A DNA stretch of 64,000 nt, taken from Minisyncoccota bacterium. GTDB taxonomy: Bacteria; Patescibacteriota; Minisyncoccia; Phycocordibacterales; PALSA-1337. Shown piece after piece: positions 23,481 to 49,063 of the stretch. The notes below the pieces were generated by a model, which saw nothing but the letters and a program-made list of their open reading frames with translations, was not told the origin of the DNA and searched no databases. The stretch covers positions 85 to 64,084 of the forward strand of contig JBAZRX010000001.1 in the NCBI GenBank assembly GCA_041662725.1, in the 5' to 3' direction. Position 1 is the first letter of the stretch; every line of letters starts with the position of its first letter. A program made the position numbers and the translations under genes.

Positions 23481-23545
23481 AATTCGTTTATTATATGGGA
23501 AAAGTAAGGAATGAAGCAAGAGGAGAGTAGCCCTTAAGGGCTACT

Positions 23546-24334
23546 CTACATTGTCAAAACTTCTGCCCCACTCTTCGTAATCACAATGGTATGTTCAAAA
23601 TGTGCGCTTGGACTGCCATCTGCTGTTCTATACGTCCAACCATCTTTATCAAGTTTAATATTCTTTGTACCAATGTTAAACATCGGTTCAATAGCAATAA
23701 CCATTCCAGGTTTCAAAACTTCTCCTTTACCAGATTCACCGAAATTAGGAACATAGGGATCTTCGTGAACACTGTAACCAACACCATGACCAGCAAGTTC
23801 TTCAACTACTCCATATTTGAAAGGTAAAGCTGTTCTAGAAATAGCATTACCAATATCACCAATCCTCTTCCCTCCTTTAGCGGCTTTTATCCCGGCAAAA
23901 AGTGCCTTCTTTGTAACTTCTATTAATTGTTCTAACTCTAGAGAAATCTTACCAACTGGAACAGTTACTGCGGCGTCAGTAATAAGCCCTTTGTGTGTAA
24001 GACCAAGATCAAGAGAAACGATGTCACCTTCTTTAAGAATCTTATCGGTTTCATTAGGAATACCATGAACAATTTCATCATTTACGGAAACACACAAAGC
24101 CGCTGGGTAAGAACTCTTTGAACCAGCAGGTTTGTAATTAAGAAAAGCTCCTTTATCACCACCTTCAGCAATAAGTTCTAATGCGCGTTTTTCTAATTCA
24201 TAAGAATGAACACCTGGACGGATCATTGAAGATAATTCATTCAAAATAAAAGCGTGTCGTTTACCACCTTCACGGAGAATTTGTATATCTTCTTTTGTTT
24301 TTGTTGTGATCATGTGAGAATTAAACAATTGCAC
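23546..24334 (-). CDS. map: type I methionine aminopeptidase
   Basis: 262 aa; conserved MetAP metal-ligand blocks (D..D..H..E..E). Confidence 0.9.
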   Translation of the reverse strand: MQLFNSHMITTKTKEDIQILREGGKRHAFILNELSSMIRPGVHSYELEKRALELIAEGGDKGAFLNYKPAGSKSSYPAALCVSVNDEIVHGIPNETDKILKEGDIVSLDLGLTHKGLITDAAVTVPVGKISLELEQLIEVTKKALFAGIKAAKGGKRIGDIGNAISRTALPFKYGVVEELAGHGVGYSVHEDPYVPNFGESGKGEVLKPGMVIAIEPMFNIGTKNIKLDKDGWTYRTADGSPSAHFEHTIVITKSGAEVLTM

Positions 24335-24425
24335 AATTTAATAATTAAACAATTGCACAATTTAACAATCCCACAATTGAATAGATACAAGTTGTTTTAA
24401 TTGTCATATTGTAGAATTGTTTAAT
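24319..24425. repeat. ACAATT-family hairpin repeat A1 (arms of tandem 8-bp nnACAATT units; contains a 24-bp internal direct duplication)
   Basis: 'ttaaacaattgcacaattta' x2 ... loop ... 'ttaattgtcatattgtagaattgtttaat'. The right arm encodes the last 7 codons of adk (LNNSTI*). Confidence 0.8.
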
Positions 24426-30065: not shown

Positions 30066-30206
30066 TTAATTAAACAATTCTACGATATAACAATTAGATA
30101 ATTACACAATTCTACAATATGACAATCAAATAGCTATAAATTGTGTTAATTGTTTAATTGTCATATTGTAGAATTGTCATATTGTTTAATTGTTTAATTT
30201 TTTAAT
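30066..30206. repeat. ACAATT-family hairpin repeat A2 (largest; ~60-bp arms of 8-bp units nnAATTGT)
   Basis: Left 'ttaattaaacaattctacgatataacaattagataattacacaattctacaatatgacaat', loop 'caaatagctata', right 'aaattgtgttaattgtttaattgtcatattgtagaattgtcatattgtttaattgtttaatt'. Confidence 0.85.
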
Positions 30207-30435: not shown

Positions 30436-30478
30436 TTTAACAATTCTACAATATAACAATTAAACAATTACAATTAAA
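30436..30478. repeat. ACAATT-family single-arm tandem array A3
   Basis: 'aacaattctacaatataacaattaaacaattacaatt'. Confidence 0.7.
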
Positions 30479-33473: not shown

Positions 33474-34325
33474 CTACACATTAACCTTTTTTTCAGTATT
33501 TACAAACATAGAAATCAGAGAGATAAGGAGGTAGATATACCAAGGAATATTAACACCAAAAATAATACCTAGAACAACGTCAATTATAATCGCTAACGTT
33601 ATAGCATATAAGCCTAATTTGAATGCCTGTCTATAAGTTACATCTATCTTACGTACCTTGTTTATTATCCAAAATATGAATGATCCAATCGTAATTGTTA
33701 ATAAATTCACAATAGTGTAAATAAAGAATAGGCCAGCGAAAAAGCCAACAATAATAAATGGAATCACTAATTTTATATATGGCTGTATCTTTGATATCTC
33801 TTCACCAAACTTAACTTTGTCTAATACCATATTAGGTACTGACTTCAAACTTTGAACAGATAGTTTCCCTTTATTGTTGTCTGGATAGACTAGATAATCT
33901 CTTGTAAGAAACGCAAACGTCTTATTATCATCAAATAATTCAGGTGTTAAAGAAGACTTCGTATCTATAACCAAGATATTTTCTGGAATTATTTCTTCCT
34001 CAGTTTTATTACTGAATTTATTAGACAATACTTCAGGAAGAGGAATATAGTATGGTTCTTGAACATTTGTTGATACCTGACCGTCCTGGAAAGTAATCTT
34101 TAATTCTTGTGGAAATGCATTAGTTAATATATCAAATGTTTCCTGAGAAAACACATTACTAATTATTGGAATAACTTGAAAGCATGCAACAATAGCTGTT
34201 ATTATCGTTACAAGTAGAATAAGTTTAAAAAAGTATTTAAATGCTTTTCCGAGACTAGTACTTTTCTGTTCAACATAGAAAGCTGGATTATAAACACTAT
34301 CTTTAATTGTTTTGAATATTGTCAT
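33474..34325 (-). CDS. hypothetical integral membrane protein (DUF1189-like?)
   Basis: 283 aa, N-terminal and C-terminal TM clusters around a soluble middle. Confidence 0.45.
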   Translation of the reverse strand: MTIFKTIKDSVYNPAFYVEQKSTSLGKAFKYFFKLILLVTIITAIVACFQVIPIISNVFSQETFDILTNAFPQELKITFQDGQVSTNVQEPYYIPLPEVLSNKFSNKTEEEIIPENILVIDTKSSLTPELFDDNKTFAFLTRDYLVYPDNNKGKLSVQSLKSVPNMVLDKVKFGEEISKIQPYIKLVIPFIIVGFFAGLFFIYTIVNLLTITIGSFIFWIINKVRKIDVTYRQAFKLGLYAITLAIIIDVVLGIIFGVNIPWYIYLLISLISMFVNTEKKVNV

Positions 34326-34424
34326 AAAAATGATTTATTTAAATAAAACCGACTGATTCGATTAAGACTAATTGTAAAACAAATTGATAATTTTAGCTAA
34401 TGATTGAATCATTACTTATGCGTT

Positions 34425-34729
34425 TAGAGCTTGGTAAATATGTTCTTTCATAACACTTGGTTGTAATTCAAATAATTGCACAATATGACAATTTAACAAT
34501 TAAGCTTGTTTCTAGCAAAACCCCACCACACTCATGTTCTAGAGCATTTCGCAGGCGTCGGGGAAATGTAATCCGCATACCTACGACACGACGCCGAGAA
34601 TAGACGGCCTTGCGAGTCTTTCGTTATTCGAGCAAGGCCGATCGTGCTCTAGAACATGAGTGTGGTGGGGTTTTGCTTAGAGATGGCGATCTTGCGAGTG
34701 TTATGAAAGAACATATTTACCAAGCTCTA
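34425..34729. repeat. 305-bp nested palindromic element (MITE-like or structured regulatory RNA/DNA)
   Basis: Outer perfect 33-bp IR (34425..34457 vs 34697..34729). Inner perfect 32-bp IR (34515..34546 vs 34645..34676). GC-rich core with further short IRs (ggccttgc/gcaaggcc). Contains an ACAATT-family arm at 34462..34505. Confidence 0.85.
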
Positions 34730-34740
34730 TACACGGTATT

Positions 34741-35577
34741 ATGATATTATTAGTTCATATGTTTTATGAACTATTTATTAATGGGTCACCTATTCTTAAT
34801 GGTAATGTTGTTGTCGTATTTACACTTATTTTCTCATTCTTAGCAATAATCTTAGCTCTTATTACCTATACTATTAGAAAGATAAAAGAAAATGAATCAC
34901 AAAAATATGAATTCATTACTATTATCGCTCACAAATTTCGCACACCGTTAACTTCAATAAAATGGCTTGCTTTGTCATTAATACAAAAAGAAACAGACCC
35001 TTATAAAAAACAAGACTTAGAAGATATCAACAAGTCCAATCAAAAACTCATAGATCTTACTGGAACTTTGATAGAATTGACCGAAAACGCTAATTCAAGC
35101 AAAGCTTCATATGTTTTTGAACGATTATCCTTATGTTCCCTAGTGCGTGATGTCTCCGATACATTTAAAGACTCTTTCCATAAGAAAAATATATTCTTTT
35201 CCGTCAGCTGTTCGGAGGAAATTTTTGTTAAAGCTGATAGACCAAGATTGGAATTTGTAATTCAAACTATTTTAGAAAATGCGCGCAATTATACATCTCC
35301 AGGCAAGAATGTTGATGTTTTTGTGTCTCGCTTACATCGCAGAGCTATTATCACTGTAGTAGATCATGGTATAGGCATAGACCAAAAAGATATTTCAAAG
35401 ATTTTTTCAAAATTCTATAGAACTCAAAATGCAAAATCTTTTGATACCGAAGGATTCGGTGTAGGTTTATACCTGGCAAAATCAATTATAAGACATCACC
35501 GAGGTAAAATAGAGATATTTTCTGAAGGAATAGATAAAGGCTCAACTTTCTCAATTGTCTTACCTAAAGTAAAATAA
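34741..35577 (+). CDS. sensor histidine kinase (orphan; no adjacent response regulator)
   Basis: 278 aa. One N-terminal TM, H-box 'IAHKFRTPLTSIKW', N/G1/G2 boxes 'ILENARNYT', 'DHGIGID', 'GFGVGLYLAKSII'. Confidence 0.8.
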   Translation: MILLVHMFYELFINGSPILNGNVVVVFTLIFSFLAIILALITYTIRKIKENESQKYEFITIIAHKFRTPLTSIKWLALSLIQKETDPYKKQDLEDINKSNQKLIDLTGTLIELTENANSSKASYVFERLSLCSLVRDVSDTFKDSFHKKNIFFSVSCSEEIFVKADRPRLEFVIQTILENARNYTSPGKNVDVFVSRLHRRAIITVVDHGIGIDQKDISKIFSKFYRTQNAKSFDTEGFGVGLYLAKSIIRHHRGKIEIFSEGIDKGSTFSIVLPKVK

Positions 35578-35700: not shown

Positions 35701-36555
35701 TTATACACTACTTCTCATATTCTTTCCTGGCTGGCGTCTGGAAACAACATAAACATTTGAATATTTCTTTGATCGACGTGTTCTCTGACCCTTTCCTGCC
35801 GGTTTACCCCACATGGTCTTCAAACGACGCAAACCACGACCTTGTCTTTGTTCACCACCACCATATGGGTGATCTACGGGGTTCATGGCTGAACCACGTA
35901 CTGTTGGGCGAATACCCATCCAACGTGAACGACCGGCTTTACCTATGTTCACAAGACGAGACTCTTCGTTAGAAACCGCACCGATAGATGCCCAAGAATC
36001 TTCATGAATCTTTCTAACTTCTGTTGATGGCATCTTAATGTGTGTATATCCAGCATCGTTAGCAACTACTTGAGCAAAAGAACCAGCAGAACGAACTAAC
36101 TTTGCACCACTTTTTGGCTTAACTTCAATATTATAAATAAATGTACCGACTGGAATCTTCTTTAAAGGTAAACGATTACCTATTTCAATAGGGGCATTTT
36201 CCGAAACGATAAATGAATTACCAACTTTCATTGTCTTTGGTAAAAGAACATAACGTTTTGCACCATCTTTATAATTTACAATACCGATATAACCAGTACG
36301 AAAAGGATCATACTCAACAGTTTTAACAGTCGCAATAATATCTTTCTTATCATACATAAAATCAATCTCTCTATAGAGTTTCTTGTGTCCTCCACCATGA
36401 TGGCGAGTAGTAATGCGTCCAGCAGAATTGCGTCCCACATCACGTTTCATTCCATGAGTAAGAGACTTGTTTGGTTCTGACACAGTCAAATATTCTTTGA
36501 ACGGTAAAACCGTCATATGTCTCCTTGATTTACTTGTTGGATTAAATGATTTCAT
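35701..36555 (-). CDS. rplB: 50S ribosomal protein L2
   Basis: 284 aa L2 consensus including 'HHGGGHKKLYR' region and C-terminal 'GGGEQRQGRG'. Confidence 0.95.
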   Translation of the reverse strand: MKSFNPTSKSRRHMTVLPFKEYLTVSEPNKSLTHGMKRDVGRNSAGRITTRHHGGGHKKLYREIDFMYDKKDIIATVKTVEYDPFRTGYIGIVNYKDGAKRYVLLPKTMKVGNSFIVSENAPIEIGNRLPLKKIPVGTFIYNIEVKPKSGAKLVRSAGSFAQVVANDAGYTHIKMPSTEVRKIHEDSWASIGAVSNEESRLVNIGKAGRSRWMGIRPTVRGSAMNPVDHPYGGGEQRQGRGLRRLKTMWGKPAGKGQRTRRSKKYSNVYVVSRRQPGKNMRSSV

Positions 36556-36572
36556 GGTAATTGATTTCTATG

Positions 36573-37034
36573 TTATACAAAGTCAATTTTCTCTCCCTTC
36601 TTTACAGTCACGATAGCCTTACGAATTCCTGATACTGTTCCTTTGCGGCCTTTTACAAAGACCTTTCTTTCTGGTGTATTGATCATAGCAATCTTGACAG
36701 GATTTACCTTGTAAAGAGCGATAATAGCCTTAGAAACCATCATTTTATTAGCATCCTTGGTTACCTTAAATGTATAAACACCACTTTGACTCAAAATACC
36801 AGATTTCTCTGTAATACAAGGACTGATAATAACCGACGCTGTATTTGATGCAGAACCAGAACTGAGTATTGGAGCTGTAATACTTTTTGTTGCAACAGCT
36901 TTTGTTGATTTGGAAGAAACCAATTTTTGAACCTTTTGTTCCTTATATGACCCTTTTTCAGATGCGCTTTTAGTCACCTTGGCTTCTTGCTCAAGCTTCT
37001 CATCTTTTCTTTTTTTAAATCCGAATATTGCCAT
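36573..37034 (-). CDS. rplW: 50S ribosomal protein L23 with ~60-aa K/S-rich N-terminal extension
   Basis: Core 'VIISPCITEKSGILSQSGVYTFKVTKDANKMMVSKAIIALYKV...' preceded by low-complexity 'KRKDEKLEQEAKVTKSASEKGSYKEQKVQKLVSSKSTKAVATKS'. Confidence 0.85.
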   Translation of the reverse strand: MAIFGFKKRKDEKLEQEAKVTKSASEKGSYKEQKVQKLVSSKSTKAVATKSITAPILSSGSASNTASVIISPCITEKSGILSQSGVYTFKVTKDANKMMVSKAIIALYKVNPVKIAMINTPERKVFVKGRKGTVSGIRKAIVTVKKGEKIDFV

Positions 37035-37039
37035 GGTAT

Positions 37040-37702
37040 TTATTTTACTGTCTTAGCGACAAGCATCTTTAAAGAAACTTCTGGGTTAACAATTACTAAA
37101 TAAGTATGATTCAAAATTGATACTGGATTAATATTACGAAATTCTTCTATTGAAATGTTGCCCATATTATTAAAACTCTTTTCAACTGACTCAACCTTCT
37201 TATCCATAGCTATTACTGCAGTATTAATTCTTTTTGTTAAAAGCCTTTCATAACCTTTGATTCCTGCGAGGGCTGAAACAATATTTTTTGCTTCCTTTGT
37301 CTTTGGCTTGGTTATATCTACATTATCAACAAAGATGATTTCCCCTTCTTTAAATTTCTTTGATAAAACAGTAAAAAGAGCCTTAGTTCTGACTTTTTTA
37401 TTGATCTTTCTATCAAAATTCTTATCATTACGAGGACCGTGAGCACCACCACCAACCCATATAGGAGATCTTGATGAGCCATGACGAGCACGTCCAGTAC
37501 CCTTCTGTTTCCAAGGCTTCTTTCCACCTCCACGAACCTCTCCACGAGTCTTTGTATGAGCAATATTGGTACGAGAGTTGGAATTCATAAGACGTACAAC
37601 TTCATGAACTAGATCGGCATTCCAAGGAACACCAAAAATATTCTCTGGTAAAGAAATTTTACCTGTTGATTTACCTATTTGATTGTAGATAGTAGCTTCC
37701 AT
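37040..37702 (-). CDS. rplD: 50S ribosomal protein L4
   Basis: 220 aa; 'RGEVRGGGKKPWKQKGTGRARHGS' L4 loop. Confidence 0.9.
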   Translation of the reverse strand: MEATIYNQIGKSTGKISLPENIFGVPWNADLVHEVVRLMNSNSRTNIAHTKTRGEVRGGGKKPWKQKGTGRARHGSSRSPIWVGGGAHGPRNDKNFDRKINKKVRTKALFTVLSKKFKEGEIIFVDNVDITKPKTKEAKNIVSALAGIKGYERLLTKRINTAVIAMDKKVESVEKSFNNMGNISIEEFRNINPVSILNHTYLVIVNPEVSLKMLVAKTVK

Positions 37703-37769
37703 GAAAGAAAATTGGCTCTAATGAGCGTGCAAAGCATCTTAACAGAGGCGTGAAGTGAAGTCAAATGAC

Positions 37770-38282
37770 TCATTCTGTTGAATATTTCAATGCAAATACG
37801 ATTGCAGTTATCACTACGAATATACCTATACTATAAGTTAAATATGCCAAAGTATTTGTGTATGAAAGTAAATTCAGCTGTGAAAGCAAGTAATTCCAAT
37901 CATGCATTGAAGAATCCCCTCCTAGCAACGGTAATTGCTGAACTATGGCATCACCCATATAAACAGATACGTTTATTATATTGTACCCAACCCACAACAG
38001 GAGTAACGAGGCTGAAAAAAATTCTTTACGAAAAAAGAAGTAGTTTGCAAAAATAAGCGGAACAAATACTTGAAGAATAGACCCGCCAAGCATTTGTATA
38101 AATTCACCAAAAAATATAAAGATTGAATGACCGGCCTCATGAATAATGAGATCTACATTATCAATAAAATGCCAATCATTTAAATTTGAAATACAATTAA
38201 AAAAATATAACCCTAAAATTATCGTCATTATCAAACGGTAATAATTTATTTTCACTGAGTTGATATTTTTGTCATTACTCAT
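37770..38282 (-). CDS. hypothetical membrane protein with HEAGH (HExxH) motif – putative membrane metallopeptidase
   Basis: 170 aa, 4-5 TM; 'LIIHEAGHSIFIFFGE' within a hydrophobic context. Confidence 0.4.
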   Translation of the reverse strand: MSNDKNINSVKINYYRLIMTIILGLYFFNCISNLNDWHFIDNVDLIIHEAGHSIFIFFGEFIQMLGGSILQVFVPLIFANYFFFRKEFFSASLLLLWVGYNIINVSVYMGDAIVQQLPLLGGDSSMHDWNYLLSQLNLLSYTNTLAYLTYSIGIFVVITAIVFALKYSTE

Positions 38283-38309
38283 ATCTATATCTTAAAAACT
38301 ACTAGGTAT

Positions 38310-39551
38310 TTATTCATAACGAAGCGCTTCTATTGGACTTTTCTTTGAAGCTTGTCTAGCAGGATAACCACCAAATATAAGACCTATAAGAGCCGATACA
38401 GAAAGACCTAGAATTGCACCGTCCCAAGGAAAAACAAATGTCCAATTAACACCTAAACCTTTAGACAAAACTATAGCGGCTATAAGAGCTAGAGAAGCTC
38501 CTAAAATAATACCTATAATTCCACCTATAGCTGTAAGCATAACCGCTTCAAGAAGAAATTGGGTTAGAATATCTCTATCAGTAGCACCTAAGGCTTTGCG
38601 TAAACCTATCTCACGTGTACGCTCTGTTACAGCCACAAGCATAATATTCATAATACCTACACCGCCTACAAACAAAGCAATTGAAGCTACGGCCACAAGA
38701 AACCAAGTTAAAGCAGATGTAATAGTTCCAAGTCTATTAGCCAGATCTTCTTGAGTTTGAACATAAAAATCATCTTTAGAAGAATCGGTAATACCATGAG
38801 ATTCCCTAAGAGTCCTACGAACATCTTCAGCTGTAGACTGAACTTGGTTATCAGTTTTCGCCTGGATAATAAAATGATGATAATACTTAATACCAAGCAT
38901 GTAATTATTTGCTGTTGTGTAAGGAACAACCACTGCCTCATCAAAATTAAATAATGAACCACCACCACCCTTCTCTAAGACTCCTACAATTTTAAGATTA
39001 CGATTCTTTAATTTTATCTTCTGTCCTATTGGATTTTCACCATCAATAAATAAATGCTCAACTACTTTTGCACCTATAACTGCCACATCCGCACGAGAAG
39101 AGACGTCATCTAGAGCAAAGAAATCTCCTTCAGCTATTTTCGCATCGAATATATCAGCAAGAAGCTCCGTACCTCCAAAAATAGATACTTGATAAACTTC
39201 AGATTTATATGAGGCTGAATCAGCACCAGCAACAAGAGGCATAAGTACTTTCAGATCTGGAACATTAGTTAATTTCATGAGCTCTCTTATGTCTTTATCT
39301 TTAAGAGAATCACTAAACATCTGAGCAGAATCAGATGGTCCAGTAGGTTCTCTCCCAGGAGTAACTATTATTGTGTTTGTTCCTAATCCCTGTACTTGCC
39401 CAAGGATAAGCTCTTGTGCACCAGCTCCAATTGAAACAACCATCATAATAGCTGTGATACCGATCACAATGCCTAGAATCGTCAAAAATGATCTTGATCT
39501 ATTCGTAGTAAGTCCGGTTAATGCTGTTTTTATTGAGTGTTTCCAAGTCAT
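38310..39551 (-). CDS. ABC transporter permease (MacB/FtsX family)
   Basis: N-terminal TM, large extracytoplasmic domain, C-terminal FtsX 4-TM bundle. Listed ORF extends to 39620 and overlaps the ATPase gene; start placed at the internal 'MTWKHSIKTAL'. Confidence 0.8.
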   Translation of the reverse strand: MTWKHSIKTALTGLTTNRSRSFLTILGIVIGITAIMMVVSIGAGAQELILGQVQGLGTNTIIVTPGREPTGPSDSAQMFSDSLKDKDIRELMKLTNVPDLKVLMPLVAGADSASYKSEVYQVSIFGGTELLADIFDAKIAEGDFFALDDVSSRADVAVIGAKVVEHLFIDGENPIGQKIKLKNRNLKIVGVLEKGGGGSLFNFDEAVVVPYTTANNYMLGIKYYHHFIIQAKTDNQVQSTAEDVRRTLRESHGITDSSKDDFYVQTQEDLANRLGTITSALTWFLVAVASIALFVGGVGIMNIMLVAVTERTREIGLRKALGATDRDILTQFLLEAVMLTAIGGIIGIILGASLALIAAIVLSKGLGVNWTFVFPWDGAILGLSVSALIGLIFGGYPARQASKKSPIEALRYE

Positions 39552-39567
39552 AAAATAACAATTTGCC

Positions 39568-40284
39568 TTATTTAACAAATTCATCACTAGCTGTAAGTCT
39601 TTTTTTAACTTTCGTATCACTTTCTATCTCCCCATCCATGAGTCTAATAATACGCTCCGCATGTTCTGCAGTAGAAGTCTCATGAGTTATAAGGACGATG
39701 GTTTTTCCATGTTCTTCATTCAAATGCTGTATGATAGCCATAACATTTTTCCCTGACTTAGAATCAAGATTACCAGTAGGTTCATCAGCAAAGATTACTT
39801 CAGGGTCAGTAACTAATGCCCTAGCGATAGCTACACGTTGTTTCTCTCCACCAGAAAGTTCTGACGGTTGGTGGTACATCCTATGCTCCAAACCAACAGA
39901 TATAACTGCTTTGCGAGCTCTCTCTTCCCATTCATTTTCAGAAACTTTTGAGTAATACAGCGGTAATTTCACATTTTCAAGTACAGATGTGCGTGGTAAA
40001 AGATTAAACATTTGGAAAACAAAACCAATTTCACGGTTACGTAAATCGGCTAATTCATCACTAGTATATGTTGATACATTTTTTCCATTAAAAGTATAAC
40101 GCCCGCCAGTTGGAGTGTCTAAAAGACCAAGTAAATGCAGTAATGTTGATTTACCACTACCAGAAGGGCCCATAATAGCCAAAAACTCACCTTTACGGAC
40201 GGAAAAAGATACTTTATTTAAAGCAATAGTATCTATACCATCATCGTATGACTTTTTTAGGTTGTTTACATCTATTATGTTCAT
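39568..40284 (-). CDS. ABC transporter ATP-binding protein (MacB/LolD-type)
   Basis: Walker A 'GPSGSGKST', signature 'LSGGEKQRVAIARAL', Walker B 'IFADEPTGNLD'. Confidence 0.9.
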   Translation of the reverse strand: MNIIDVNNLKKSYDDGIDTIALNKVSFSVRKGEFLAIMGPSGSGKSTLLHLLGLLDTPTGGRYTFNGKNVSTYTSDELADLRNREIGFVFQMFNLLPRTSVLENVKLPLYYSKVSENEWEERARKAVISVGLEHRMYHQPSELSGGEKQRVAIARALVTDPEVIFADEPTGNLDSKSGKNVMAIIQHLNEEHGKTIVLITHETSTAEHAERIIRLMDGEIESDTKVKKRLTASDEFVK

Positions 40285-40289
40285 GAAAA

Positions 40290-40378
40290 TTTAACAATTA
40301 CACAATTAGACAATTTAACAATTGAGACGCCGTGCTTTAATTGTTCAATTGTGTAATTGTTAAATTGTAGAATTACTA
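40290..40378. repeat. ACAATT-family hairpin repeat A5
   Basis: 'aacaattacacaattagacaatttaacaattg' – loop 'agacgccgtgcttt' – 'aattgttcaattgtgtaattgttaaattg'. Confidence 0.8.
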
Positions 40379-41902
40379 TTTTACATACGTCACAATCTTA
40401 TCCCCTGCTCTCAATCCTGAAATAATTTCAACCATACCATCTGAACCTTTAAGACCAACTTCTACAGGTATTGATACAAAACTTTTACCATCAGATCCAA
40501 GAAGACGCACATTTTTTGTTCCAGAAACATCAATAATAGTTCTTGTAGGAACAGTAATCACGTTACTGCGTTCACGAGTCAGTATATCTAAGTTAGCGGT
40601 CATGCCAGAACGAATACGCTCATCTTTCTGTAAAAAATGTAAAGTAACTTTATAAGTAGGTACGCCTTCCAATATTGTTTCAGCCGGGTCCATAGTAACT
40701 GCTACTGCCGGAAAATCCACATTCTGACCATAAGCATCCAAAGTAGTAGAAGCATAATTACCAATAACAATCTTAGCAATATCAGCTTCTGGAACATAAG
40801 CTTCTATTTTATATACATCATCACTTTGAACTCCATACACAATCTTACCTGCCTGAACAAATTCACCCACACTAGGATCTGCACGAGTAATAATGCCGCT
40901 AATAGGAGAAACTATTCTATCTTTTTCATATTCTGCTTTATATGCTGCTACCAGAGCGGCTTGTGCCGCAATAGTTTGAGCAGATGACCCCGTCTTTCTT
41001 AAAATAAAATTGCTATCAGCTTGTTCATACGCTGACAAAGCATTTTCCAAACCAGTTTTCGCACTAGTAATTGAAGCTATAGCTTGATTCGTTAATGTAA
41101 GGCCTGAGTTTATTGATGAAACATAAGTATCAATAGTAGCCTGAGTTAAACCAGAATTACCTAGATTTAGATTATTAACAATAGTAGAAAGGCTACTCAT
41201 AAAATCTCTCACCACATTTACATACATATCTGCTTTTGAAATAAGAATATTTATATTATCTGTTGATGTTACAGCATCAATATCTGCTTTCCACTTAACT
41301 AAAGTTTCAGCTACTGAAATACGTGACATGTTAATTGTATTTTTTTCAGTTTGAGACTGAGTACGTACTTTTATTTCAGGGTTAGCACTTTGAGGACTAT
41401 CAAATAATGAATCGGCATAGTTTGTAATAGCACTTTGTGCCTGTACATAAGCCGTTCTAGAAGCATCAAAAGCTTCTTGTTTAGCATTCGCAAGAGAAAC
41501 TTTAGCTGTATTAACCTTTGATTGTTCCACTGCAAGTTCTTGTGAATTCAGATTGCGAGATAAATCATCCAACTTAGCTTGTGCTGAAGCAAGATTAGCA
41601 GCATCACCAGAACTGTTAAGCCCAGCAATCAGCGAACCTTTTTCTATTTTATCCCCAACTTTGACATTAATAGTTTTAATAATTCCACCTTTTTCAAAAG
41701 CCAAATCCGCCTTACCAACTGGAGATATTTTACCAGTAACACTAACTTTTTCTGTAATATTACCAACAGTAGCTACAGCGAATTCTATATTAACAGCAGG
41801 ATTTCTATTATAAAAAATAAATACTAGTACAATCGCAAGTATTACTACAAAAATAAAAACATATTTGTTTTTAATATAATGCTTAAAAAAAGATCTTTTC
41901 AT
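40376..41902 (-). CDS. efflux periplasmic adaptor (HlyD/MacA-like) protein
   Basis: N-terminal TM, long coiled-coil region, beta-barrel/lipoyl-like C-terminus. Listed ORF extends to 41962 across a GC-rich palindrome; start placed at 'MKRSFFKHY'. Confidence 0.65.
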   Translation of the reverse strand: MKRSFFKHYIKNKYVFIFVVILAIVLVFIFYNRNPAVNIEFAVATVGNITEKVSVTGKISPVGKADLAFEKGGIIKTINVKVGDKIEKGSLIAGLNSSGDAANLASAQAKLDDLSRNLNSQELAVEQSKVNTAKVSLANAKQEAFDASRTAYVQAQSAITNYADSLFDSPQSANPEIKVRTQSQTEKNTINMSRISVAETLVKWKADIDAVTSTDNINILISKADMYVNVVRDFMSSLSTIVNNLNLGNSGLTQATIDTYVSSINSGLTLTNQAIASITSAKTGLENALSAYEQADSNFILRKTGSSAQTIAAQAALVAAYKAEYEKDRIVSPISGIITRADPSVGEFVQAGKIVYGVQSDDVYKIEAYVPEADIAKIVIGNYASTTLDAYGQNVDFPAVAVTMDPAETILEGVPTYKVTLHFLQKDERIRSGMTANLDILTRERSNVITVPTRTIIDVSGTKNVRLLGSDGKSFVSIPVEVGLKGSDGMVEIISGLRAGDKIVTYVK

Positions 41903-41918
41903 AAACAAATACATTGTA

Positions 41919-41952
41919 CCACGAGGCCTCGCCTCGAGGCGAGGCCTCGTGG
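41919..41952. promoter_or_regulatory. perfect 34-bp GC-rich palindrome upstream of the efflux operon
   Basis: 'ccacgaggcctcgcctcgaggcgaggcctcgtgg' is its own reverse complement; stark GC contrast with the surroundings. Confidence 0.7.
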
Positions 41953-42035
41953 AAATCGCCATAAAAAGTCTTAAGCAAACAAATATCCGTAGATTTTCTT
42001 AAGTAAAGCAGACAAAAACAAACTAGATATTAAGA

Positions 42036-42066
42036 AGCACGAAAAATCCCCTGCAGGGGATTTTTC
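42036..42066 (-). terminator. rho-independent (bidirectional) terminator after rplC
   Basis: 'aaaaatcccctgcaggggattttt'. Confidence 0.65.
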
Positions 42067-42166
42067 TAGTCCTCAATGATTTTTCTGCTGAAAAATCATT
42101 TGCGGAGCCTCTTCATACCTATTTGTTTTCGTCTGCTACTATTTTATCGCTATGGAACACTAAAAT

Positions 42167-42772
42167 TTAACCCACTATCTCCACAAGCGTTCCCCTTCTT
42201 CCAGGAATAGCTCCTGAAACGTATAAAACACTTTCTTCAGCATCAATGTGAGCAACTTTAAGATTGGTAACGGTAATACGATCACTACCCATACGTCCTG
42301 CCATACGCATACCTACCGGAACATGTGTACGTAAGCCACCACCGATAGAACCTGCTTCACGTTCAGAGTGTTTCTGACCATGAGAACGAGGTCCTCCTCC
42401 GAAACCATGACGTTTTACAACACCCTGAAAACCTTTACCTTTGGAAACTGCTGTAACCATTACAGTATCACCTGGTTTGAACTGTGATATTTCTATCTTA
42501 TCTCCAACTTTAAGCGTAGGACTTTCAACACGAAATTCCTTAACTGAAGCAAATGATCCTAATTCCTTGAAATGACCTTTTTGTGGTTTATTTATACGAT
42601 TTGGATTACGAGAACCCTCGCCTATCTGTACAGCTTCATAACCATCTGTGTCTTTGGTGCGAACTTGTGTAACGACATTTCCACGTATAACTACTGCTGT
42701 AACTGGAATAGCAACACCAGAGGCATCGTATATTTGTGTCATATTCAGTTTTCTTCCTAGAATAAATTTCAT
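42167..42772 (-). CDS. rplC: 50S ribosomal protein L3
   Basis: 201 aa L3 consensus. Confidence 0.9.
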   Translation of the reverse strand: MKFILGRKLNMTQIYDASGVAIPVTAVVIRGNVVTQVRTKDTDGYEAVQIGEGSRNPNRINKPQKGHFKELGSFASVKEFRVESPTLKVGDKIEISQFKPGDTVMVTAVSKGKGFQGVVKRHGFGGGPRSHGQKHSEREAGSIGGGLRTHVPVGMRMAGRMGSDRITVTNLKVAHIDAEESVLYVSGAIPGRRGTLVEIVG

Positions 42773-42785
42773 GTGAATTTCTGTA

Positions 42786-43172
42786 TTACATCATCTTTAC
42801 ATCAATGTTAACTCCTGATGGCAAGCTAAGGTTAGTTAACGCTTCAATAACTTTTGGATTCGGATTAATAATATCAATCAAACGCTTGTGAACTCTCATT
42901 TCAAACTGCTCACGAGAATTCTTATCAATAAAAGACGCGCGATTTACGGTGTATTTCTTGATTTCCGTTGGCAAAGGTACTGGACCATGGATCTCAGCAT
43001 CATAACGAGCCGCTGTATCCATAATCTGTTTCAATGAAGCATCTAAAATCTTATGCTCATAAGCACGTACGCGAATGCGTAGATGTTGAACCTCGCCAGC
43101 AATCTTAGCTTTTTTAATTCTAGGATGTTTGACTGATTTAGACTCTTTTTTAATTGTTTCTTTTGTTGCCAT
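42786..43172 (-). CDS. rpsJ: 30S ribosomal protein S10 (with ~25-aa K-rich N-terminal extension)
   Basis: 'HLRIRVRAYEHKILDAS...' S10 core. Confidence 0.9.
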   Translation of the reverse strand: MATKETIKKESKSVKHPRIKKAKIAGEVQHLRIRVRAYEHKILDASLKQIMDTAARYDAEIHGPVPLPTEIKKYTVNRASFIDKNSREQFEMRVHKRLIDIINPNPKVIEALTNLSLPSGVNIDVKMM

Positions 43173-43182
43173 AATATTTAAT

Positions 43183-43269
43183 ATTCAACAATTTAACAAT
43201 TCCACAATTTAACAATCAAAACACCGTGTTCTAATTGTTAAATTGTCATATTGTTGAATTGTTAAATTA
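43183..43269. repeat. ACAATT-family hairpin repeat A6 (tuf–rpsJ spacer)
   Basis: 'caacaatttaacaattccacaatttaacaat' – loop 'caaaacaccgtgttc' – 'taattgttaaattgtcatattgttgaattgttaaatt'. Confidence 0.8.
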
Positions 43270-44457
43270 CTACGCGATCACTTTTGTTACAACACCAGCA
43301 CCCACAGTCTTTCCTCCTTCACGAACAGCAAATCTCTGTTTATCTTCAAGAGCAACTGGAGCAACGAGCTTTACTTTGAAAGTAATAGTATCTCCTGGCA
43401 TAACCATCTCAACCTTTTCAGGAAGAGTTACTTCACCAGTAACATCAGTAGTACGAATATAAAACTGAGGCTTATAACCTGTAAAGAATGGAGTGTGACG
43501 ACCACCTTCTTCCTTCTTCAAAACGTAAACTTCTGACTCAAATTCTGTATGAGGTTTGACAGACCCTGTCTTGGCAAGAACCTGACCTCTTGAAACATCA
43601 TCTTTAGCTGTACCACGAAGAAGAACTCCGGCGTTATCTCCAGCCATTCCCTCTTTGAGAGATTTATTAAACATTTCAATACCTGTAACAGTAGTCTTGG
43701 TTGTATCCTTGAAACCTACAATTTCAACTTCCTCACCAACCTTGATCATACCGCGTTCAATACGACCAGTAACCACAGTTCCACGACCTTCAATAGAGAA
43801 GATATCCTCAATAGGCATAAGGAAAGGCTTATCAACCTCACGAACTGGAGCTGGAATATAAGTATCAAGTGCGTTCATGAGCTCATCAATCTTTGTTGAC
43901 CATGTAGCATCACCATTCAAAGCATTTGAGGCTGAACCACGAATAATAGGAACATTTTTACCATCAAACTTGTTCTTCGTAAGAAGTTCGCGAACTTCCT
44001 CTTCAACAAGATCAATAAGATCTGTCTCAGGAACGAGATCACACTTGTTCAAGAAGACTACAATCTTTGGAACACCCACTTGGTAAGCCAAAAGAACGTG
44101 CTCACGTGTTTGTGGCATAACACCATCAGTTGCAGAAACGACGAGAATAGCTCCGTCCATTTGAGCGGCACCTGTAATCATGTTCTTAATAAAGTCGGCG
44201 TGTCCTGGACAGTCAATGTGAGCATAGTGACGAGTAGGAGTTTCGTACTCTACGTGAGACAAAGAAATTGTAACTGTCTTTGTAGCATCACGAACAGTAC
44301 CACCCTTTGTGATATCAGCGTATGCTTTAACATTTGCTAAACCTTTCTTGGATTGAACGGCCAAGATAGCTGCTGTCAAAGTAGACTTCCCGTGGTCAAT
44401 GTGACCAATGGTTCCAACGTTGATATGCGGCTTGTTGCGATTAAATTCTGCTGCCAT
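43270..44457 (-). CDS. tuf: elongation factor Tu
   Basis: 395 aa; 'GHIDHGKST', 'DCPGHADF', 'NKCD' GTPase motifs. Confidence 0.95.
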
Positions 44458-44635: not shown

Positions 44636-44746
44636 AAAATTCGCAAATTTTTTTCTACGAATCTACGAATATGCGAATGAAACACAGCATCTGCGATTAT
44701 TCGTAGATTCGTAGCCCATTCGCATAATTCGTAGATTCGTAGTTTA
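44636..44746. promoter_or_regulatory. ACGAAT-family hairpin B2 (upstream of tuf, immediately downstream of the giant gene)
   Basis: Left arm 'ctacgaatctacgaatatgcgaatg', right arm 'cattcgcataattcgtagattcgtag'; 8-bp ctACGAAT units. Confidence 0.75.
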
Positions 44747-47700
44747 CTTAGCAAAATATTCTCCTAAAGAATCCCAAACTGAAGCTCTTCCACTAGTACT
44801 ATTATTTACAGAAGTTGGTGCTGAATTAGGGGTTGGTGTAGGAGTTGGTGTAGGTTTTATTAAATTATAATATTCTGCTGTATTCATCAGAACGCCTTTT
44901 ATATAACTAATATCATAACCAGAATTTACCCAGTAATCTAAACCAGCTTGATCTGGATTACGTTTAAGTAAAGTTACGTACAACTGAGTTATATCATTAA
45001 TTCTTGCTTGTTTTGGAGAAATTGTTGATGTTGGGGTTGGGGTTAAAGTTGGTGTAGGTGTTGGTGAATAATACGGTTTTGTTGTTGGTGAAGGAGAAGG
45101 AGTAATTACTGAAGATTGTGCCTTCACAGTTGTTGTTTGACTTGAAACTATTGATGAAACAGGAATAACCGCAACAGCCTGTGAACCATCGGTGAATTTA
45201 ACTATAAGTTTACCGCCATACCATGTTGTTATTGACTCTTTTTGACCATAGAGCATATAGACTTGAGAACTATATGATGCTTGACCAAGAGGCAAAACGT
45301 CATAATACTTATCATTAAATTGAGTACTTGAGCCCTGTATAACAATAACAAGTGGATATGGCTTTCTACCATAAGAATCAAGTTCGGCACTTGTTGACCA
45401 CGCTTCACCATTATTATCACTCAAAACAGTTATTGATTTTATACTTTTTCCACCAGCACTATTGATTTTCATTTCCATACGCCATCCCCAATCAGATGGA
45501 TCTTTACTTATATACCCACGTCCAGAACTAAATTGATCCCAAGCACCAGCACGATCTTCATTGGCGCTATACACAACAGCTTTAATAGTGCCATCAAATG
45601 TAGGGTAATTCGATGACGGTGTTTGTGTAGGGGTAGGATTTAAAGAAACAGCAGAAGTTTTAATTGTAGACTGTGTTACTTTTGCATATGTTGGTGGAAG
45701 ACTAAGCTTCTCTTCGTCTGATGCTATAACTGTTTTACCATCTTTTACTGAAAGAAGTTCGGCCTTAGCAACAACAGTTTGGACAACACTGGTATTATTT
45801 TTAAATATCACATCAATAAAACCGTCAGGAGCAACTTTATTTTTTACACCACAAGCAAGACCGCCGTTTACATTAGTTGGAGCTGAAGCGACAACACCTG
45901 TAGGACAGACGATTGAAAGAATCCAATCAAACTCATCAACTTGACTGTTTGTAGAATAACGTACACGAATACCTTCATTAGTTCCGATTATTTTTGAAGA
46001 AAGAGTAAAAACAGAAGAAGAAACTGGGGCTGTAATAGAAGATTGTGCCGAATTAGAAACTTTAACTTTTATAGTATTACTTTTTATAGCTTCATTTTTA
46101 GCATTTAAGGACATTAAATATAAATTGTAATCACCATCAACAATAGAAGTAGTTGGCTCATTCCACCAACCATCTGGATGCACGCCACGACCTATTGTGC
46201 TAGGAATTGTAAAACTGAGTTTAGAACCATCGTATAGTGAATATCCTGTTAATGTACGAACATCATGAGAATACCCCACTGACCATGTTTTTGAGCCATC
46301 AACTGTTGTAAGAATAATATTTCCTGTTCTACCAGCACCTGTTGCATAAATTGTTAATAAAGATCCTACTGAAACAGGCTGAGGTGCAACTCGGCTTATT
46401 TCTGGTTGTACTCCACTTACTGGAGGAATAATACTAAAAAAATCATTACTATCATCACAAATATCTGTTCCTGCTTTACATACCCTTGCCTTATATTGAC
46501 CAACAGAAATTTGACTAGGATACGTAGAAAATCCGAGTGACTGTGCATTTTTATTTGATGGTTTTAAATTTAACTGGATAGGACTTGGTATAACTTGACC
46601 AGATGAATTTAGTAACTTTACATCAACTGATTGGGTAGGATCTATGGAATCCCATATAACACTCAATGATTCGCCCTGTGCTATTTTTTCTCCTCCATTA
46701 GGTGAAACAATAACAACACTACCCCTATTAGGAGCTGGAACGTCAACTTTAGCCTTAACCGCTTTTGCATTACATGATGCATTTATTTTTTTTAAAGTAA
46801 AAGGTCCAGCAACGCCAGTTGAAGGAACTCCGATTGATGTTTGAAATGCTTTTACTGCGGCTTTGGTATCAGAACCAAAATATCCCTTCAGAGCATTACC
46901 TAAAGAAATACTCGGAATATCAAAACCGTTATTGATCAACCATGTTTGCAAAGCTACGACTTCTGATCCAGAACTACCTACAGAAAGGCCAGAGTTTTCT
47001 AAAGCAAAGATAGCTGAGAAGTTGTAACACAAACTTATTCCTGAAGAAGCTTTGAATTTAGAGTTAGTTGAATCAACTGAACTATCCGCCACAGTACACA
47101 CATATCCGGTAGGACATCCTTCAGGTTGAACAGCTAGAGGTGTACAAACATAACCTTCAGGACATGAAAAAGGAAGTGTACAAATATATCCAACAGGACA
47201 TAAAACAGAAGATTGCTCTAGTGCATCCCCTACAGCGGCAACAAGTCTTGTATCTCTTGGTACAAGACTAACTGGACTAGAACTCGGCATTGGTGTTGGA
47301 GAAGATGAAGATGTTGGAGAAGTTGAAGGAGTCGGTGTAGGAGATGGAGTTGAAGAAGGTGTAGGAGATGGAGTTGGAGTAATAATCGGTGTTGGGGTAG
47401 GAGTAGAAGCTGGAGATGGCGTTGGTGTTGAAGAAGGAGCTACTGAAGGAGTCGGCGAAGAATAATAACTTGAAGTTGGAGATGGTGAAGGTGTATATGT
47501 TGGTGAGTAAGTAGATGTTGGGGAAGGAGTATATGTTGGGGAATAAGAAGAAGTTGGTATAGGAGTAGAAGTTGGTCTAGGTGTATATGTTGGTGAGTAA
47601 GTAGAAGTCGGAACAGGAGTTGCTGAAGATACTGGTCTAGGAGTAGCTGAGTAAGCAGGAATTGGAGTTGTTGCTGGAACATAAGCAGGACTTGGAGAGA

Positions 47701-49063
47701 TAGAACGCATACACCTATCACCTATCTTAGTGTAACCAGGAGGACAAGATGCTGGTGAAGGTGAAGCTGCTGGTGCTGATGAATACGTAGGAGCAGAAGA
47801 AACCGCTGGAGTAGCTTGTGGTGTACTAACTGGTAACGTTGTTGGTGAAGAGCCTGTAATTAACGAAGTGGCAAATCTTAAAGCGCTTGAGTATGTATTA
47901 CGTATTCTTCCGAAGAAACCAGTTGATGCTGCTGGAGTTGGGGCTGGGGTGGAAACTACTGGACGATTCAATGTAGTAAAAACACCTTCTCTTGTTAACA
48001 CACCAGACCAAGTATAGAAATTATCTAAACCAGTAGTTTGATTAGTAACAGTTTTTCCCCCTACAGTGTAATCAATATCCTTAACTGCCATAAGCAAGTT
48101 AAGGGAAGGATTGTTTGGAGTGAAAGGAAGTGCTTGGTTTGATGATACCTGACCATTCAAAACAACTGTATATGTACCACCATCCCCGATAGTTGCATCA
48201 GACGGAGTCACATATATATTCATAATACTTGCTGTGTATGCATTCTGTTTGTTCCCTGCTGTCGATGTTACATAGGCACCATTTGTCTGTGTTGATGATG
48301 CAAATACAAGAGTGAAGTCTTTAAGGGTAGGTTTAACCATCACTCCTCCAACTGCTTTAGCTTTAAGAGTAATAGTTCCGAATAGAGAGCTTGAGGCTAC
48401 ATCTTTTACACCTGGTGCTGAAAAAATATCAGCACTTACGAATGACCAGTCGACGCGAGGATATGTTGTATTTGACAAAGTACTATTACAAAGACCATTT
48501 CTAGGATAATCAAGACTTAATTCCTTTGTATTTGTCTTAAAATCCATTAAATCTCTAATTTCAACTCTAGCCACCCTTCCACCAACGTTAAAAGTAATAT
48601 CTCTAATTGCCATAAAGAGATTTTGGGCTGAACAAATATCAGGATTATTAGACATAACAGCACCGTAAATTGTTACTGTGTATTCTTCTCCATCATTAAT
48701 CGTAGGTTTATTTGGTGTAACAACAATAGATCTGATGACCCCAGAATAGATAGAATTTGAAGAATCAATACGTTTAAAAGGTTTGTATATTTCCGTACTG
48801 GAAGCAAAAATTAAACTAAAATCGCTAGCCTTTGGCTTAACTATCGTTCCTCCAACCGCTTTAACTTTAAGAGTAATAGTTCCGGTTAGAGAGCTTGAAG
48901 CTACATCTTTTACACCTGGTGTTGAAGCAATATCGGAACTTACGAAGGACCAAGAGGCACGAGGAGAGGTAGCCTGCGCCTCAACTTTCGTTATTTCACC
49001 AGAGAAAACCGCAAACGATAATACTGTTAGCGAAATAAAGAAAGAAAATAATATTTTTTTCAT
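44744..49063 (-). CDS. giant secreted multidomain protein (PT-rich linkers, PG_binding_1-like and DUF4214-like domains)
   Basis: 1439 aa. Signal peptide. Tandem duplicated ~55-aa module ([36 protein letters not shown] / [37 protein letters not shown]). '[12 protein letters not shown]' repeats. Three 'CPxGYxCT' repeats. '[16 protein letters not shown]...[14 protein letters not shown]...GVAGPFT' peptidoglycan-binding-like. C-terminal '[22 protein letters not shown]' DUF4214-like. Confidence 0.8.

Follow-up and report, generated by a model that had tools for sequence, protein, structure and literature searches.

A MacB-type efflux module within the S10 ribosomal protein cluster of a clade of Paceibacteria, and a REP-like palindrome beside its predicted promoter

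The stretch of DNA analysed here (the window) is an AT-rich (36% GC) 64-kb portion of a metagenome-assembled genome of Candidatus Paceibacterota, in which the S10 ribosomal protein cluster is broken between rplC and rplD by the three genes of a MacB-type tripartite efflux pump and by a gene for a small membrane protein with an HExxH motif. Three sister lineages carry the same block at the same place and, to judge from gene order and composition, the insertion is a real, old and inherited trait of one clade within the Candidate Phyla Radiation (CPR). Few gene orders in bacteria are as rigid as rpsJ-rplC-rplD, and synteny and binning commonly rely on it as an anchor; the parts of the inserted block are mostly ordinary, and what is unusual is its location inside rpsJ-rplC-rplD and the evident rewiring by a terminator and two promoters. 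The sequence signals suggest that the operon was rewired into three predicted transcription units, which is the most economical reading, and a GC-rich perfect palindrome at the predicted promoter of the efflux genes is best read as one copy of a dispersed repeat of the repetitive extragenic palindrome (REP) kind that arrived after the pump was inserted. Taken as a whole, this account (an insertion inherited in the clade, three predicted units, and a REP-like copy standing outside the design) seems to us probable.

All genes concerned lie on the minus strand, and their order, taken from the list of open reading frames (ORFs) with Pfam and NCBIfam, runs tuf-rpsJ-rplC, adaptor-ATPase-MacB permease-HEAGH protein (so called here after its form of the HExxH motif), rplD-rplW-rplB, both databases confirming the identities of rpsJ, rplC, rplD and rplW. 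A preliminary description, made from the letters alone, had reported the efflux genes and the HEAGH gene as an interruption of the S10 cluster, and all of these ORFs are present in the order and at the coordinates it gave:

43270-44457, minus strand: tuf, upstream of rpsJ (ORF list)
42786..43172, minus strand: rpsJ (S10; Pfam Ribosomal_S10, 8.1e-32)
42167..42772, minus strand: rplC (L3; Pfam Ribosomal_L3), final gene of the upstream unit, separated from the adaptor gene by a spacer of 264 nt
40376..41902, minus strand: adaptor, a membrane fusion protein (MFP) of MacA/YknX-like type, 508 aa, membrane-anchored (HlyD_3, HlyD_D23, TIGR01730)
39568..40284, minus strand: ABC ATPase of MacB/LolD/YknY type, a separate polypeptide (ABC_tran, 2.2e-35)
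38310..39551, minus strand: MacB-type permease, MacB_PCD plus FtsX (PF12704, PF02687)
37770..38282, minus strand: HEAGH protein, 170 aa, about four transmembrane (TM) helices and an interfacial helix with HExxH, of an unannotated family
37040-37702, minus strand: rplD (Pfam, ORF list), in the downstream ribosomal unit 35701..37702
36573-37034, minus strand: rplW (Pfam, ORF list)
35701-36555, minus strand: rplB (Pfam, ORF list)

How uncommon this arrangement is can be seen from a survey of the rplC-rplD adjacency based on an L3 protein scan with one genome per GTDB species, which yielded 80 loci ranging from Patescibacteria out to Actinobacteria and Bacteroidota, 79 of them extending past rplC. 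At every one of these 79 informative loci rplD follows rplC directly, with a gap of at most 388 nt. Sister-lineage contigs were picked via the closest homologues of the HEAGH protein (P0004, P0006 and P0016, 54-63% identical to that of the window) and come from independent JGI, ENA and Logan assemblies. In these three other Paceibacteria lineages the pump and HEAGH block again lies between rplC and rplD, without additional genes in L111/L112, with an additional 416-aa ORF ahead of the HEAGH gene in L110, and in the order rplC-adaptor-(EamA-type gene)-ATPase-permease-HEAGH-rplD in L082/L083, the EamA-type gene of L083 occupying the position of the adaptor/ATPase spacer. The L3 proteins of the sister lineages are 84-88% identical to that of the window, compared with 69% for the best GTDB representative. 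Since the same block recurs in lineages whose L3 is so similar, we take the insertion to be inherited within one clade, and the synteny that the preliminary description had wished to see examined in relatives is thus borne out. With its order shared by four lineages it is not an assembly error or a recent island, and the GC content of the pump genes equals that of their neighbours. No description of this insertion was found in the searchable literature. The S10 operon (rpsJ-rplC-rplD-rplW-rplB and onwards) is conserved (PMC8046335), and the cluster described here keeps the genes, order and strand of the canonical one; it differs in being split, by prediction, into units, with rplD heading a unit of its own behind a conserved leader.

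The signals from which this division is read, together with the palindrome, are the following:

42041..42066, minus strand: intrinsic terminator after rplC with GC core CCCC/GGGG and a TTTTT run (terminator scan; 13-bp perfect arms, -14.8 kcal/mol)
41919..41952, no strand: REP-like perfect palindrome, a 26-nt apex G-AGGCCTCGCCTCGAGGCGAGGCCT-C on a copy-specific base CCAC/GTGG
41913..41921, minus strand: extended -10 box predicted for the pump unit, TGGTACAAT, 10 nt ahead of the ATG (read from the sequence)
37731..37764, minus strand: predicted rplD promoter, TTGACT, 17 nt, TG-n-TAAGAT, with the leader reaching to the ATG at 37702 (scan with TG; invariant blocks)

The terminator is a perfect hairpin, GAAAAATCCCCTGCAGGGGATTTTTC, found also by a consensus scan on the minus strand. 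The strong terminator that had been noticed after rplC is therefore present, and has equivalents in the three sister lineages; its start had been set at 42036, which is 5 nt too generous. A stem-loop followed by a T run stands right after rplC in four of four lineages (L083, L110, L111 and the window), the sequences being unrelated to one another. Likewise, the motif TGnTAnAAT ends 8-10 nt before the ATG of the adaptor gene in all four, as TGGTACAAT in the window, TGTTATAAT in L083 and L111 and TGATATAAT in L110, which fits an extended -10 promoter giving an almost leaderless pump mRNA. Between the HEAGH gene and rplD the spacers are otherwise unalignable, and the four lineages share there the invariant blocks TTGACTTCA, CTCTGTTAAGATGCTTT, CACGCTC and ATTTTCTTTCATGGAAGC, in this order. 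Block CTCTGTTAAGATGCTTT comprises TTGACT, 17 nt and TG-n-TAAGAT, and ATTTTCTTTCATGGAAGC sits at the start codon; the same promoter was found independently by a generic promoter scan and occurs once in the window. Because a terminator after rplC, a -10 box of the pump and a promoter with leader before rplD are all found in the four lineages, three units are predicted. Unit 1 (tuf-rpsJ-rplC) would end at the intrinsic terminator, unit 2 (pump and HEAGH protein) would be initiated at an extended -10 box of its own, 8-10 nt ahead of the adaptor ATG, and unit 3 (rplD-rplW-rplB) would start from a new promoter of sigma-70 type with its leader in the HEAGH-rplD spacer. The ancestor of this Paceibacteria clade would first have gained the four-gene membrane module between rplC and rplD, the rewiring coming later; a CPR clade would in this way have stably tolerated a foreign membrane module in one of the most invariant of gene orders by adding a predicted terminator and two predicted new promoters.

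The nearly invariant promoter and leader of rplD (37703-37764 in the window, 8818-8910 in L083, 7120-7191 in L110 and 9120-9219 in L111) are an object for experiment in their own right. Between the conserved CACGCTC and ATTTTCTTTC-ATG blocks the leader holds a variable hairpin, and it has no Shine-Dalgarno sequence. In Escherichia coli, L4, the product of rplD, exerts autoregulation at the S10 leader, and it is tempting to suppose that the rplD leader could serve as a new site of L4 feedback.

As to its relationships in sequence, the pump is unremarkable within the MacB (type VII ABC) family and has a monoderm layout. The adaptor matches TIGR01730 (RND_mfp) at 1e-42 and 146 bits, above the cut-off of 94.9, has an N-terminal TM helix and no Cys/lipobox, and finds its best PDB sequence match in MacA (5nik_D, 2.7e-16); its start at ATG 41902 (MKRS...) is consistent with the MKKS starts of the orthologues. 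Among NCBIfam models the ATPase matches LolD (1e-75) and MacB-NBD (3e-68), both below the equivalog cut-offs. The permease carries PF12704 MacB_PCD (1.9e-41, residues 21-246) and PF02687 FtsX (8.8e-21, residues 287-406), matches MacB NF007826 at 4.9e-68 across the permease part, and in the PDB matches 5gko (MacB, 1.1e-60), 5nik and, over full length, 5xu1 (Spr0695, 1.1e-40). The features of the MacB type are all present, namely an N-terminal TM helix, a large extracytoplasmic MacB_PCD domain and a C-terminal FtsX bundle of three TM helices, and the adjacent cognate ATPase and co-encoded membrane-fusion adaptor complete the set expected of a MacB-type exporter. No gene for a TolC-type duct lies within the module; CPR cells are generally regarded as monoderm, and TolC is not expected in a cell of that type. 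The pump, whatever its substrate may be, would act by mechanotransmission without a TolC partner.

MacB and MacA of MacAB-TolC, the macrolide/peptide exporter of E. coli, are thus the best PDB matches, and the MacB_PCD and FtsX domains are shared with that system, whereas the ATPase here is encoded separately instead of being fused as in E. coli MacB, a TolC-type partner is missing from the module, and the adaptor, at 508 aa, has a TM anchor. The likeness extends to the monoderm MacAB-like pumps YknWXYZ of Bacillus and Spr0693-0694-0695 of Streptococcus pneumoniae (PMC4887032, PMC5768738, PMC5985334), which also combine an adaptor, a separate ATPase and a four-TM MacB/FtsX permease bearing a large extracytoplasmic domain and have no outer-membrane duct. 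As in yknWXYZ, a fourth, small polytopic membrane protein is present, and in a further lineage, L086, whose orthologous module is matched by the YknX-type adaptor Pfam family, the order HEAGH-MFP-ABC-permease mirrors W-X-Y-Z. Unlike YknWXYZ and Spr0693-0694-0695, the module described here lies inside the S10 ribosomal cluster, and unlike YknW, its fourth protein belongs to an unannotated HExxH family that is not consistently linked to pumps. YknW itself is of a Yip1-type family.

The HEAGH motif occupies residues 48-52 of this fourth protein, for which AlphaFold2 gives a model of pLDDT 92 with helices at 14-32, 39-54 (bearing HEAGH), 60-84, 88-110, 128-135 and 139-169. An NCBI entry is 100% identical to the protein. 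A word-indexed search returned 201 homologues; those that carry a name come almost without exception from Patescibacteria, and no Pfam domain was found in any of the 201. An exhaustive profile search counted 2,828 cluster representatives at E<=1e-3. In an alignment of 42 sequences H48, E49, G51, H52, Q71, P75, Y81, F82, Y108, D111, L119, L120, G121, G122, H127, D128 and W129 are invariant. By the positive-inside rule we infer that the HEAGH helix and the D111...LPLLGGD...HDW loop of the model would both face outwards, where a metal site at the outer membrane surface is probably made up of the invariant HExxH...D...GGD..HDW residues. The protein resembles membrane-embedded zinc proteases of the site-2 protease/M50, M50B and CPBP/Abi kinds in having HExxH on a helix at the membrane together with extra invariant acidic and His residues, and its Pro/Gly-rich LPLLGGD is reminiscent of NxxPxxxLDGG, the motif of M50. 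The suggestion that it might be CPBP/Abi or M50-like found no backing, as there is no significant match to the profiles PF02163, PF13398 and PF02517 or to a solved member, nothing similar in sequence in Pfam, NCBIfam or the PDB, and no specific fold match despite the confident model. A lipobox (L-[AS]-[GA]-C), also envisaged, is absent, the N-terminus reading ...LGLYFFNCIS with a Cys that is not conserved among the 42 aligned sequences.

The HEAGH gene stands downstream of the pump in the four lineages with the S10 insertion, upstream of an adaptor-ATPase-permease set located elsewhere in the genome in L086, and without linkage to any MacB genes in four other lineages. The further idea that the protein processes an exported peptide fails to gain support, the genes of its homologues being adjacent to MacAB genes in only two of the six kinds of context examined. 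Because homologues are often not beside MacAB genes, membership of the HEAGH protein in the pump is uncertain. We tentatively propose, leaning slightly against rather than for it, that the protein faces outwards as a metal-dependent hydrolase or as a sensor domain and may, in some lineages, help the pump. In some members the HEAGH domain follows a Ser/Thr protein kinase domain or precedes a NUDIX domain in a fused chain (P0265, P0274, P0177, P0179, P0243/P0301), and longer versions of 396 aa, among these same entries, are found in cyanobacteria, so that the family extends beyond CPR. What is thereby opened to experiment is a large family of small HExxH membrane proteins that lacks annotation, is spread over CPR and cyanobacteria and is sometimes joined to Ser/Thr kinases.

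The palindrome, CCACGAGGCCTCGCCTCGAGGCGAGGCCTCGTGG, is a perfect 17+17 dyad of 34 nt with a predicted RNA folding energy of -33.5 kcal/mol. No other 34-mer of the window is as rich in GC (76%, compared with 36% for the whole), and no perfect hairpin in it is longer, so that its description as a perfect GC-rich palindrome compositionally alien to AT-rich surroundings is confirmed. It is present in a single copy in the window even with 3 mismatches allowed, and in none of 100 shuffles. It lies 89 nt downstream of the terminator, forms a hairpin without a U tract, and ends where the -10 box begins, the TG of TGGTACAAT falling within its last 3 nt. The equivalent spacers of the three sister lineages do not contain it, and a fuzzy search of all their sampled DNA returned no copy. 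As the insertion is common to four lineages and the palindrome present in one, the palindrome arrived after the insertion; in the lineage of the window alone, a copy would have landed directly against the -10 box. Three sister lineages thus have the insertion without the palindrome, as the preliminary description had foreseen among the findings that would count against its proposal, with predicted terminators there instead of the read-through transcription it had coupled to this. A GC hairpin of unrelated sequence, GGACCAGGTCTGACCTGGTCC, lies near the -35 of the pump promoter in L110 (1617-1637), in the same relative place. The window holds a second perfect palindrome of 24 nt, AGAGTAGCCCTTAAGGGCTACTCT, at 23524-23547, which fills the gap between the minus-strand ORFs 22872-23519 and 23546-24334 and has no copy in any locus fetched for the analysis.

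Outside the window the palindrome proves to belong to a family. When JGI metagenome contigs were scanned with the central 24-mer, 26 exact copies came to light in 22 stretches from at least 18 contigs; a doubly compensated variant (G>A with C>T) adds 5 copies, and in 9 half forms a stem is capped by GAGGC-GAG-GCCTC. The 190 kb of loci, from another Parcubacteria lineage, hold 31 copies and 9 half forms in all, with 4 exact cores on one 78-kb contig; counting that of the window, the 32 copies are all intergenic and have 22 different complementary feet. All 26 exact cores lie outside credible genes (three overlap merely ORFs of 91-97 aa from the mechanical list), and at least 14 of them are within 21 nt of a stop codon, mostly just 3' of it. 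The carrier contigs, of 39-43% GC, do not match the window at the nucleotide level; among their products are RpoC, class I LysRS, GAPDH, pilins and proteins of that sort, the LysRS sharing a 90% cluster with that of Parcubacteria bacterium C7867-002. The apex is constant over 26 nt, the base adjoining the 24-mer being always G/C; the next position is S, and beyond the apex 2-10 bases vary between copies yet are always complementary, with subfamilies TCCGG, TCCCG and GATCG, the CCACG foot of the window being a singleton. The notion of a generic repeat is therefore correct in related genomes only, and the window itself has one copy in its 64 kb, which is not unexpected since the carrier lineage has about one exact core per 20-40 kb.

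The family is moreover associated with genes resembling those of the REP-associated tyrosine transposases (RAYTs). In L105 an ORF of 185 aa (3110-3667) matches Pfam Y1_Tnp at 4.9e-6, carries HUH (HFH) and YIHLNP motifs and has REP-associated tyrosine transposase (REP_Tyr_transpos, 4.2e-8, below cut-off) as its sole NCBIfam match. Copies of the palindrome bracket this gene at 3083-3106 and 3682-3705, 4 nt and 15 nt from its ends, a half form following 75 nt further on, and homologues with 36-40% identity occur in two other Patescibacteria loci. In L033 (13708-14507) a homologous RAYT-like gene stands between two copies of another perfect palindrome of 24 nt, TGTGCAACCTCCGGAGGTTGCACA, each with its own complementary foot (CCC/GGG and CTCATT/AATGAG). 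RAYT-like Y1 transposase genes also adjoin TGTGCAATACCTAGGTATTGCACA in L015 (10637-11259) and are bracketed by 22-nt inverted repeats in L101 (3831-4561). Because the core is dispersed in intergenic DNA and brackets a RAYT-like gene, the palindrome family is, on this comparative evidence, best read as a REP-like dispersed repeat of Parcubacteria, not as an operator or an insertion scar.

Known REP and REPIN systems consist of dispersed extragenic palindromes accompanied by a usually single-copy IS200-like tyrosine transposase (PMC3116915, PMC3337134, PMC5581495). The family described here, as seen in the other Parcubacteria lineage, shares with them short extragenic palindromes in many dispersed copies, singlet (half) and doublet forms, and an IS200-family Y1 transposase gene (HFH; YIHLNP) bracketed by repeat copies. 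Nunvar et al. (2010) reportedly described repeats as flanking the RAYT gene. It departs from known REPs in the perfect symmetry of the Parcubacteria palindromes, whose apex of 24-26 nt is constant and whose base is variable yet complementary, and from known REP-RAYT systems in having Patescibacteria as hosts, RAYT-like proteins below the curated cut-off and no GTAG-type tetranucleotide. A 5' tetranucleotide of GTAG type is a feature of E. coli REPs; the flanks of the copies show no conserved GTAG-like cleavage tetranucleotide at the foot of the hairpin. The repeat family is, then, a modestly novel CPR member of the REP/RAYT kind beside an ordinary pump, and current understanding is not overturned; repeats of this kind in ultra-small genomes, usually thought to be poor in repeats, nevertheless offer something to test. 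Neither REP nor RAYT in Patescibacteria was found described in the searchable literature.

Several other origins for the palindrome were considered and set aside. A DNA-uptake sequence is at odds with the 12-nt half site being hardly ever found alone (9 half forms against 52 in full cores), the half forms being hairpins themselves; a phage origin, with the lack of any IMG/VR match and with carrier contigs that encode RpoC, LysRS and GAPDH; and insertion into terminator loops, with the loop-less perfect palindromes, not terminators, that remain once the 26-nt apex is removed.

The reading offered in the preliminary description, a candidate operator for a dimeric regulator, would have a repressor sit on the dyad across the -35/spacer region and so control the efflux unit, and draws on the perfect 17+17 dyad abutting the predicted -10 box and on the GC hairpin at about -35 of L110. 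It seems quite improbable to us, because three sister lineages with the same module function without the palindrome in their orthologous promoters; moreover an identical core recurs on at least 18 contigs of another lineage, where a stop codon mostly lies at most 21 nt away and the neighbouring genes are unrelated, copies of it enclose a RAYT-like gene, and the module includes no regulator gene. Still less likely is the companion proposal that recombination, in bringing in the pump, left a scar or att-like site here. Such a site would explain a compositionally foreign sequence at one border of the block, but the palindrome came later than the insertion, the HEAGH/rplD border has a conserved promoter in place of a counterpart, and the pump genes have the GC content of their surroundings. 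An assembly artefact or synthetic linker is about as hard to credit as a scar: the core contains StuI-XhoI-StuI restriction sites, Logan contigs of the same sample break in the rplC-adaptor spacer and inside the permease gene, and perfect palindromes trouble assemblers; however, three other lineages show the same gene order in assemblies made independently (JGI, ENA and Logan), the core lies at natural intergenic sites in many independent JGI assemblies and in the context of a cognate transposase, and the complementarity of its flanks, 2-10 nt, is no read-length fold-back. Of a different kind is the proposal that a REP copy was co-opted locally, its hairpin without a U tract backing up the terminator or protecting 3' ends, of which REPs of E. 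coli are capable, or its foot supplying the TG and displacing the -35; this concerns function only and is compatible with a REP-like origin. The strength of the hairpin (-33.5 kcal/mol) and its position 89 nt beyond the terminator, the TG of TGGTACAAT inside it, and the location of most copies elsewhere just 3' of genes, as in E. coli REPs, speak for it, REPs having a described role in mRNA turnover (PMC3479197); sister lineages manage without the palindrome, its position could simply be tolerated, and the effect is one predicted from sequence, so that we regard co-option as unlikely, if clearly less so than an operator.

Our preference for a REP-like copy beside an inherited, rewired insertion has to be held against several observations that weigh the other way. 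The -35/spacer position, the place to be expected of an operator, is exactly the one that the palindrome covers; the 64-kb window holds one copy of it and no RAYT homologue, and abundance across a genome is shown for another lineage only. The two RAYT-like proteins score 33 and 74 bits against the curated NCBIfam cut-off of 80. Exact look-ups of the adaptor (508 and 528 aa) gave no independent assembly of the palindrome, and that of L3 found a 1.2-kb Logan contig ending 78 nt after rplC, contigs from the same sample breaking near hairpins. The terminator and both promoters are predictions, the rules of CPR promoters not being established, and homologues of the HEAGH protein are often met away from MacAB genes.

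The pattern of a constant apex on a variable foot, with 22 feet in 32 copies and again around a second RAYT with a different palindrome, invites a bolder hypothesis, which we think somewhat unlikely: that Patescibacteria have a distinct REP-RAYT variant, with a constant 24-26-nt apex and a copy-specific complementary foot, that can remodel promoters. If this were true, its propagation would target the centres of short pre-existing palindromes or would copy flanking host sequence back on itself, and REP-like elements could remodel promoters, the extended -10 of an efflux operon housed in the S10 ribosomal cluster here owing its TG to the foot of a hairpin.

The spacers around the pump contain other inverted repeats:

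42004..42140, minus strand: composite inverted repeat of ~135 nt, an outer stem of ~32 bp enclosing two hairpins (RNA fold, self-match)
42075..42100, minus strand: AT-rich hairpin AATGATTTTTC-AGCA-GAAAAATCATT (11-bp perfect arms, -9.0 kcal/mol)
40285..40375, no strand: AT-rich hairpin of 8-nt AATTGTNN periods filling the adaptor/ATPase spacer (-27.4 kcal/mol)

The composite repeat, which the preliminary description does not mention and whose arms by self-match are 42107-42137 and 42007-42038, folds at -67 kcal/mol (z = -10.6; none of 200 shuffles as good). Its two inner hairpins reuse the same 8-mers, GATTTTTC and GAAAAATC, in swapped order, and it has the look of a miniature inverted-repeat transposable element (MITE), in single copy in the window. 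A ribosome-stalling attenuator was considered, given the tiny ORFs MKRLRK and MIFQQKNH overlapping the hairpin at 42075-42100 and the shared 8-mers GATTTTTC and GAAAAATC, and was rejected because L083, L110 and L111 have neither leader ORF nor paired hairpins and each has a promoter beside the ATG. A tmRNA fragment suggested by Rfam at 41914-42176 (17.4 bits against 47) bears no similarity to the real tmRNA of the window at 15461-15826 and is a false positive driven by hairpins; nothing credible as a riboswitch or known leader was found in this spacer or in the 427-nt spacer of L111. Hairpins of AATTGTNN periods form a second, AT-rich dispersed repeat, seen at 40285-40375, 43175-43265, 24317-24371, 30147-30161, 30448-30470 and 34488-34502, and fill both the adaptor/ATPase and the tuf/rpsJ spacers; CAATTGTTAAATTGT has 17 matches with at most 2 mismatches in the window, against 0.8 expected. 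Comparable AT-rich periodic hairpins precede rpsJ in L111, L083 and L110. Between the permease and HEAGH genes of L083 (7800-7995) lies a MITE-like element of ~190 nt with terminal inverted repeats TGTCATTCCCGCGAAAGCGGGAATCCAG and CTGGATTCCCGCCTTCGCGGGAATGACA, each a GC hairpin on its own.

The str-S10 region of the window is interrupted at two further places, both of them interrupted in L083 as well. A 1,439-aa surface protein with PG_binding_1 (44744-49063), whose size across the clade is 1,100-1,400 aa, stands between fusA and tuf, and a small two-TM histidine kinase on the opposite strand stands with a DUF1189 protein between rplB and rpsS (33474-35577). No response regulator adjoins this kinase in the window, and one may speculate, by analogy with BceS-type kinases, that it might sense via the nearby MacB-type pump. 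Other Paceibacteria carry 1-4 kb of cargo between rpsJ and rplC (L024 677-4754; L023 1239-4799; L007 169-1578): in L024 (Nomurabacteria) a Fib_succ_major/Lcl_C protein with a reverse transcriptase after it, an arrangement resembling a diversity-generating retroelement, and in L007 cargo that includes a sigma-70 region-4 protein. Because the clade has these further interruptions and other Paceibacteria have unrelated cargo at rpsJ/rplC, operon continuity is evidently relaxed in this group. Elsewhere in the window, the bona fide tmRNA gene at 15461-15826 scores 107 bits, and two tRNA genes lie at 11222-11295 and 8725-8814.

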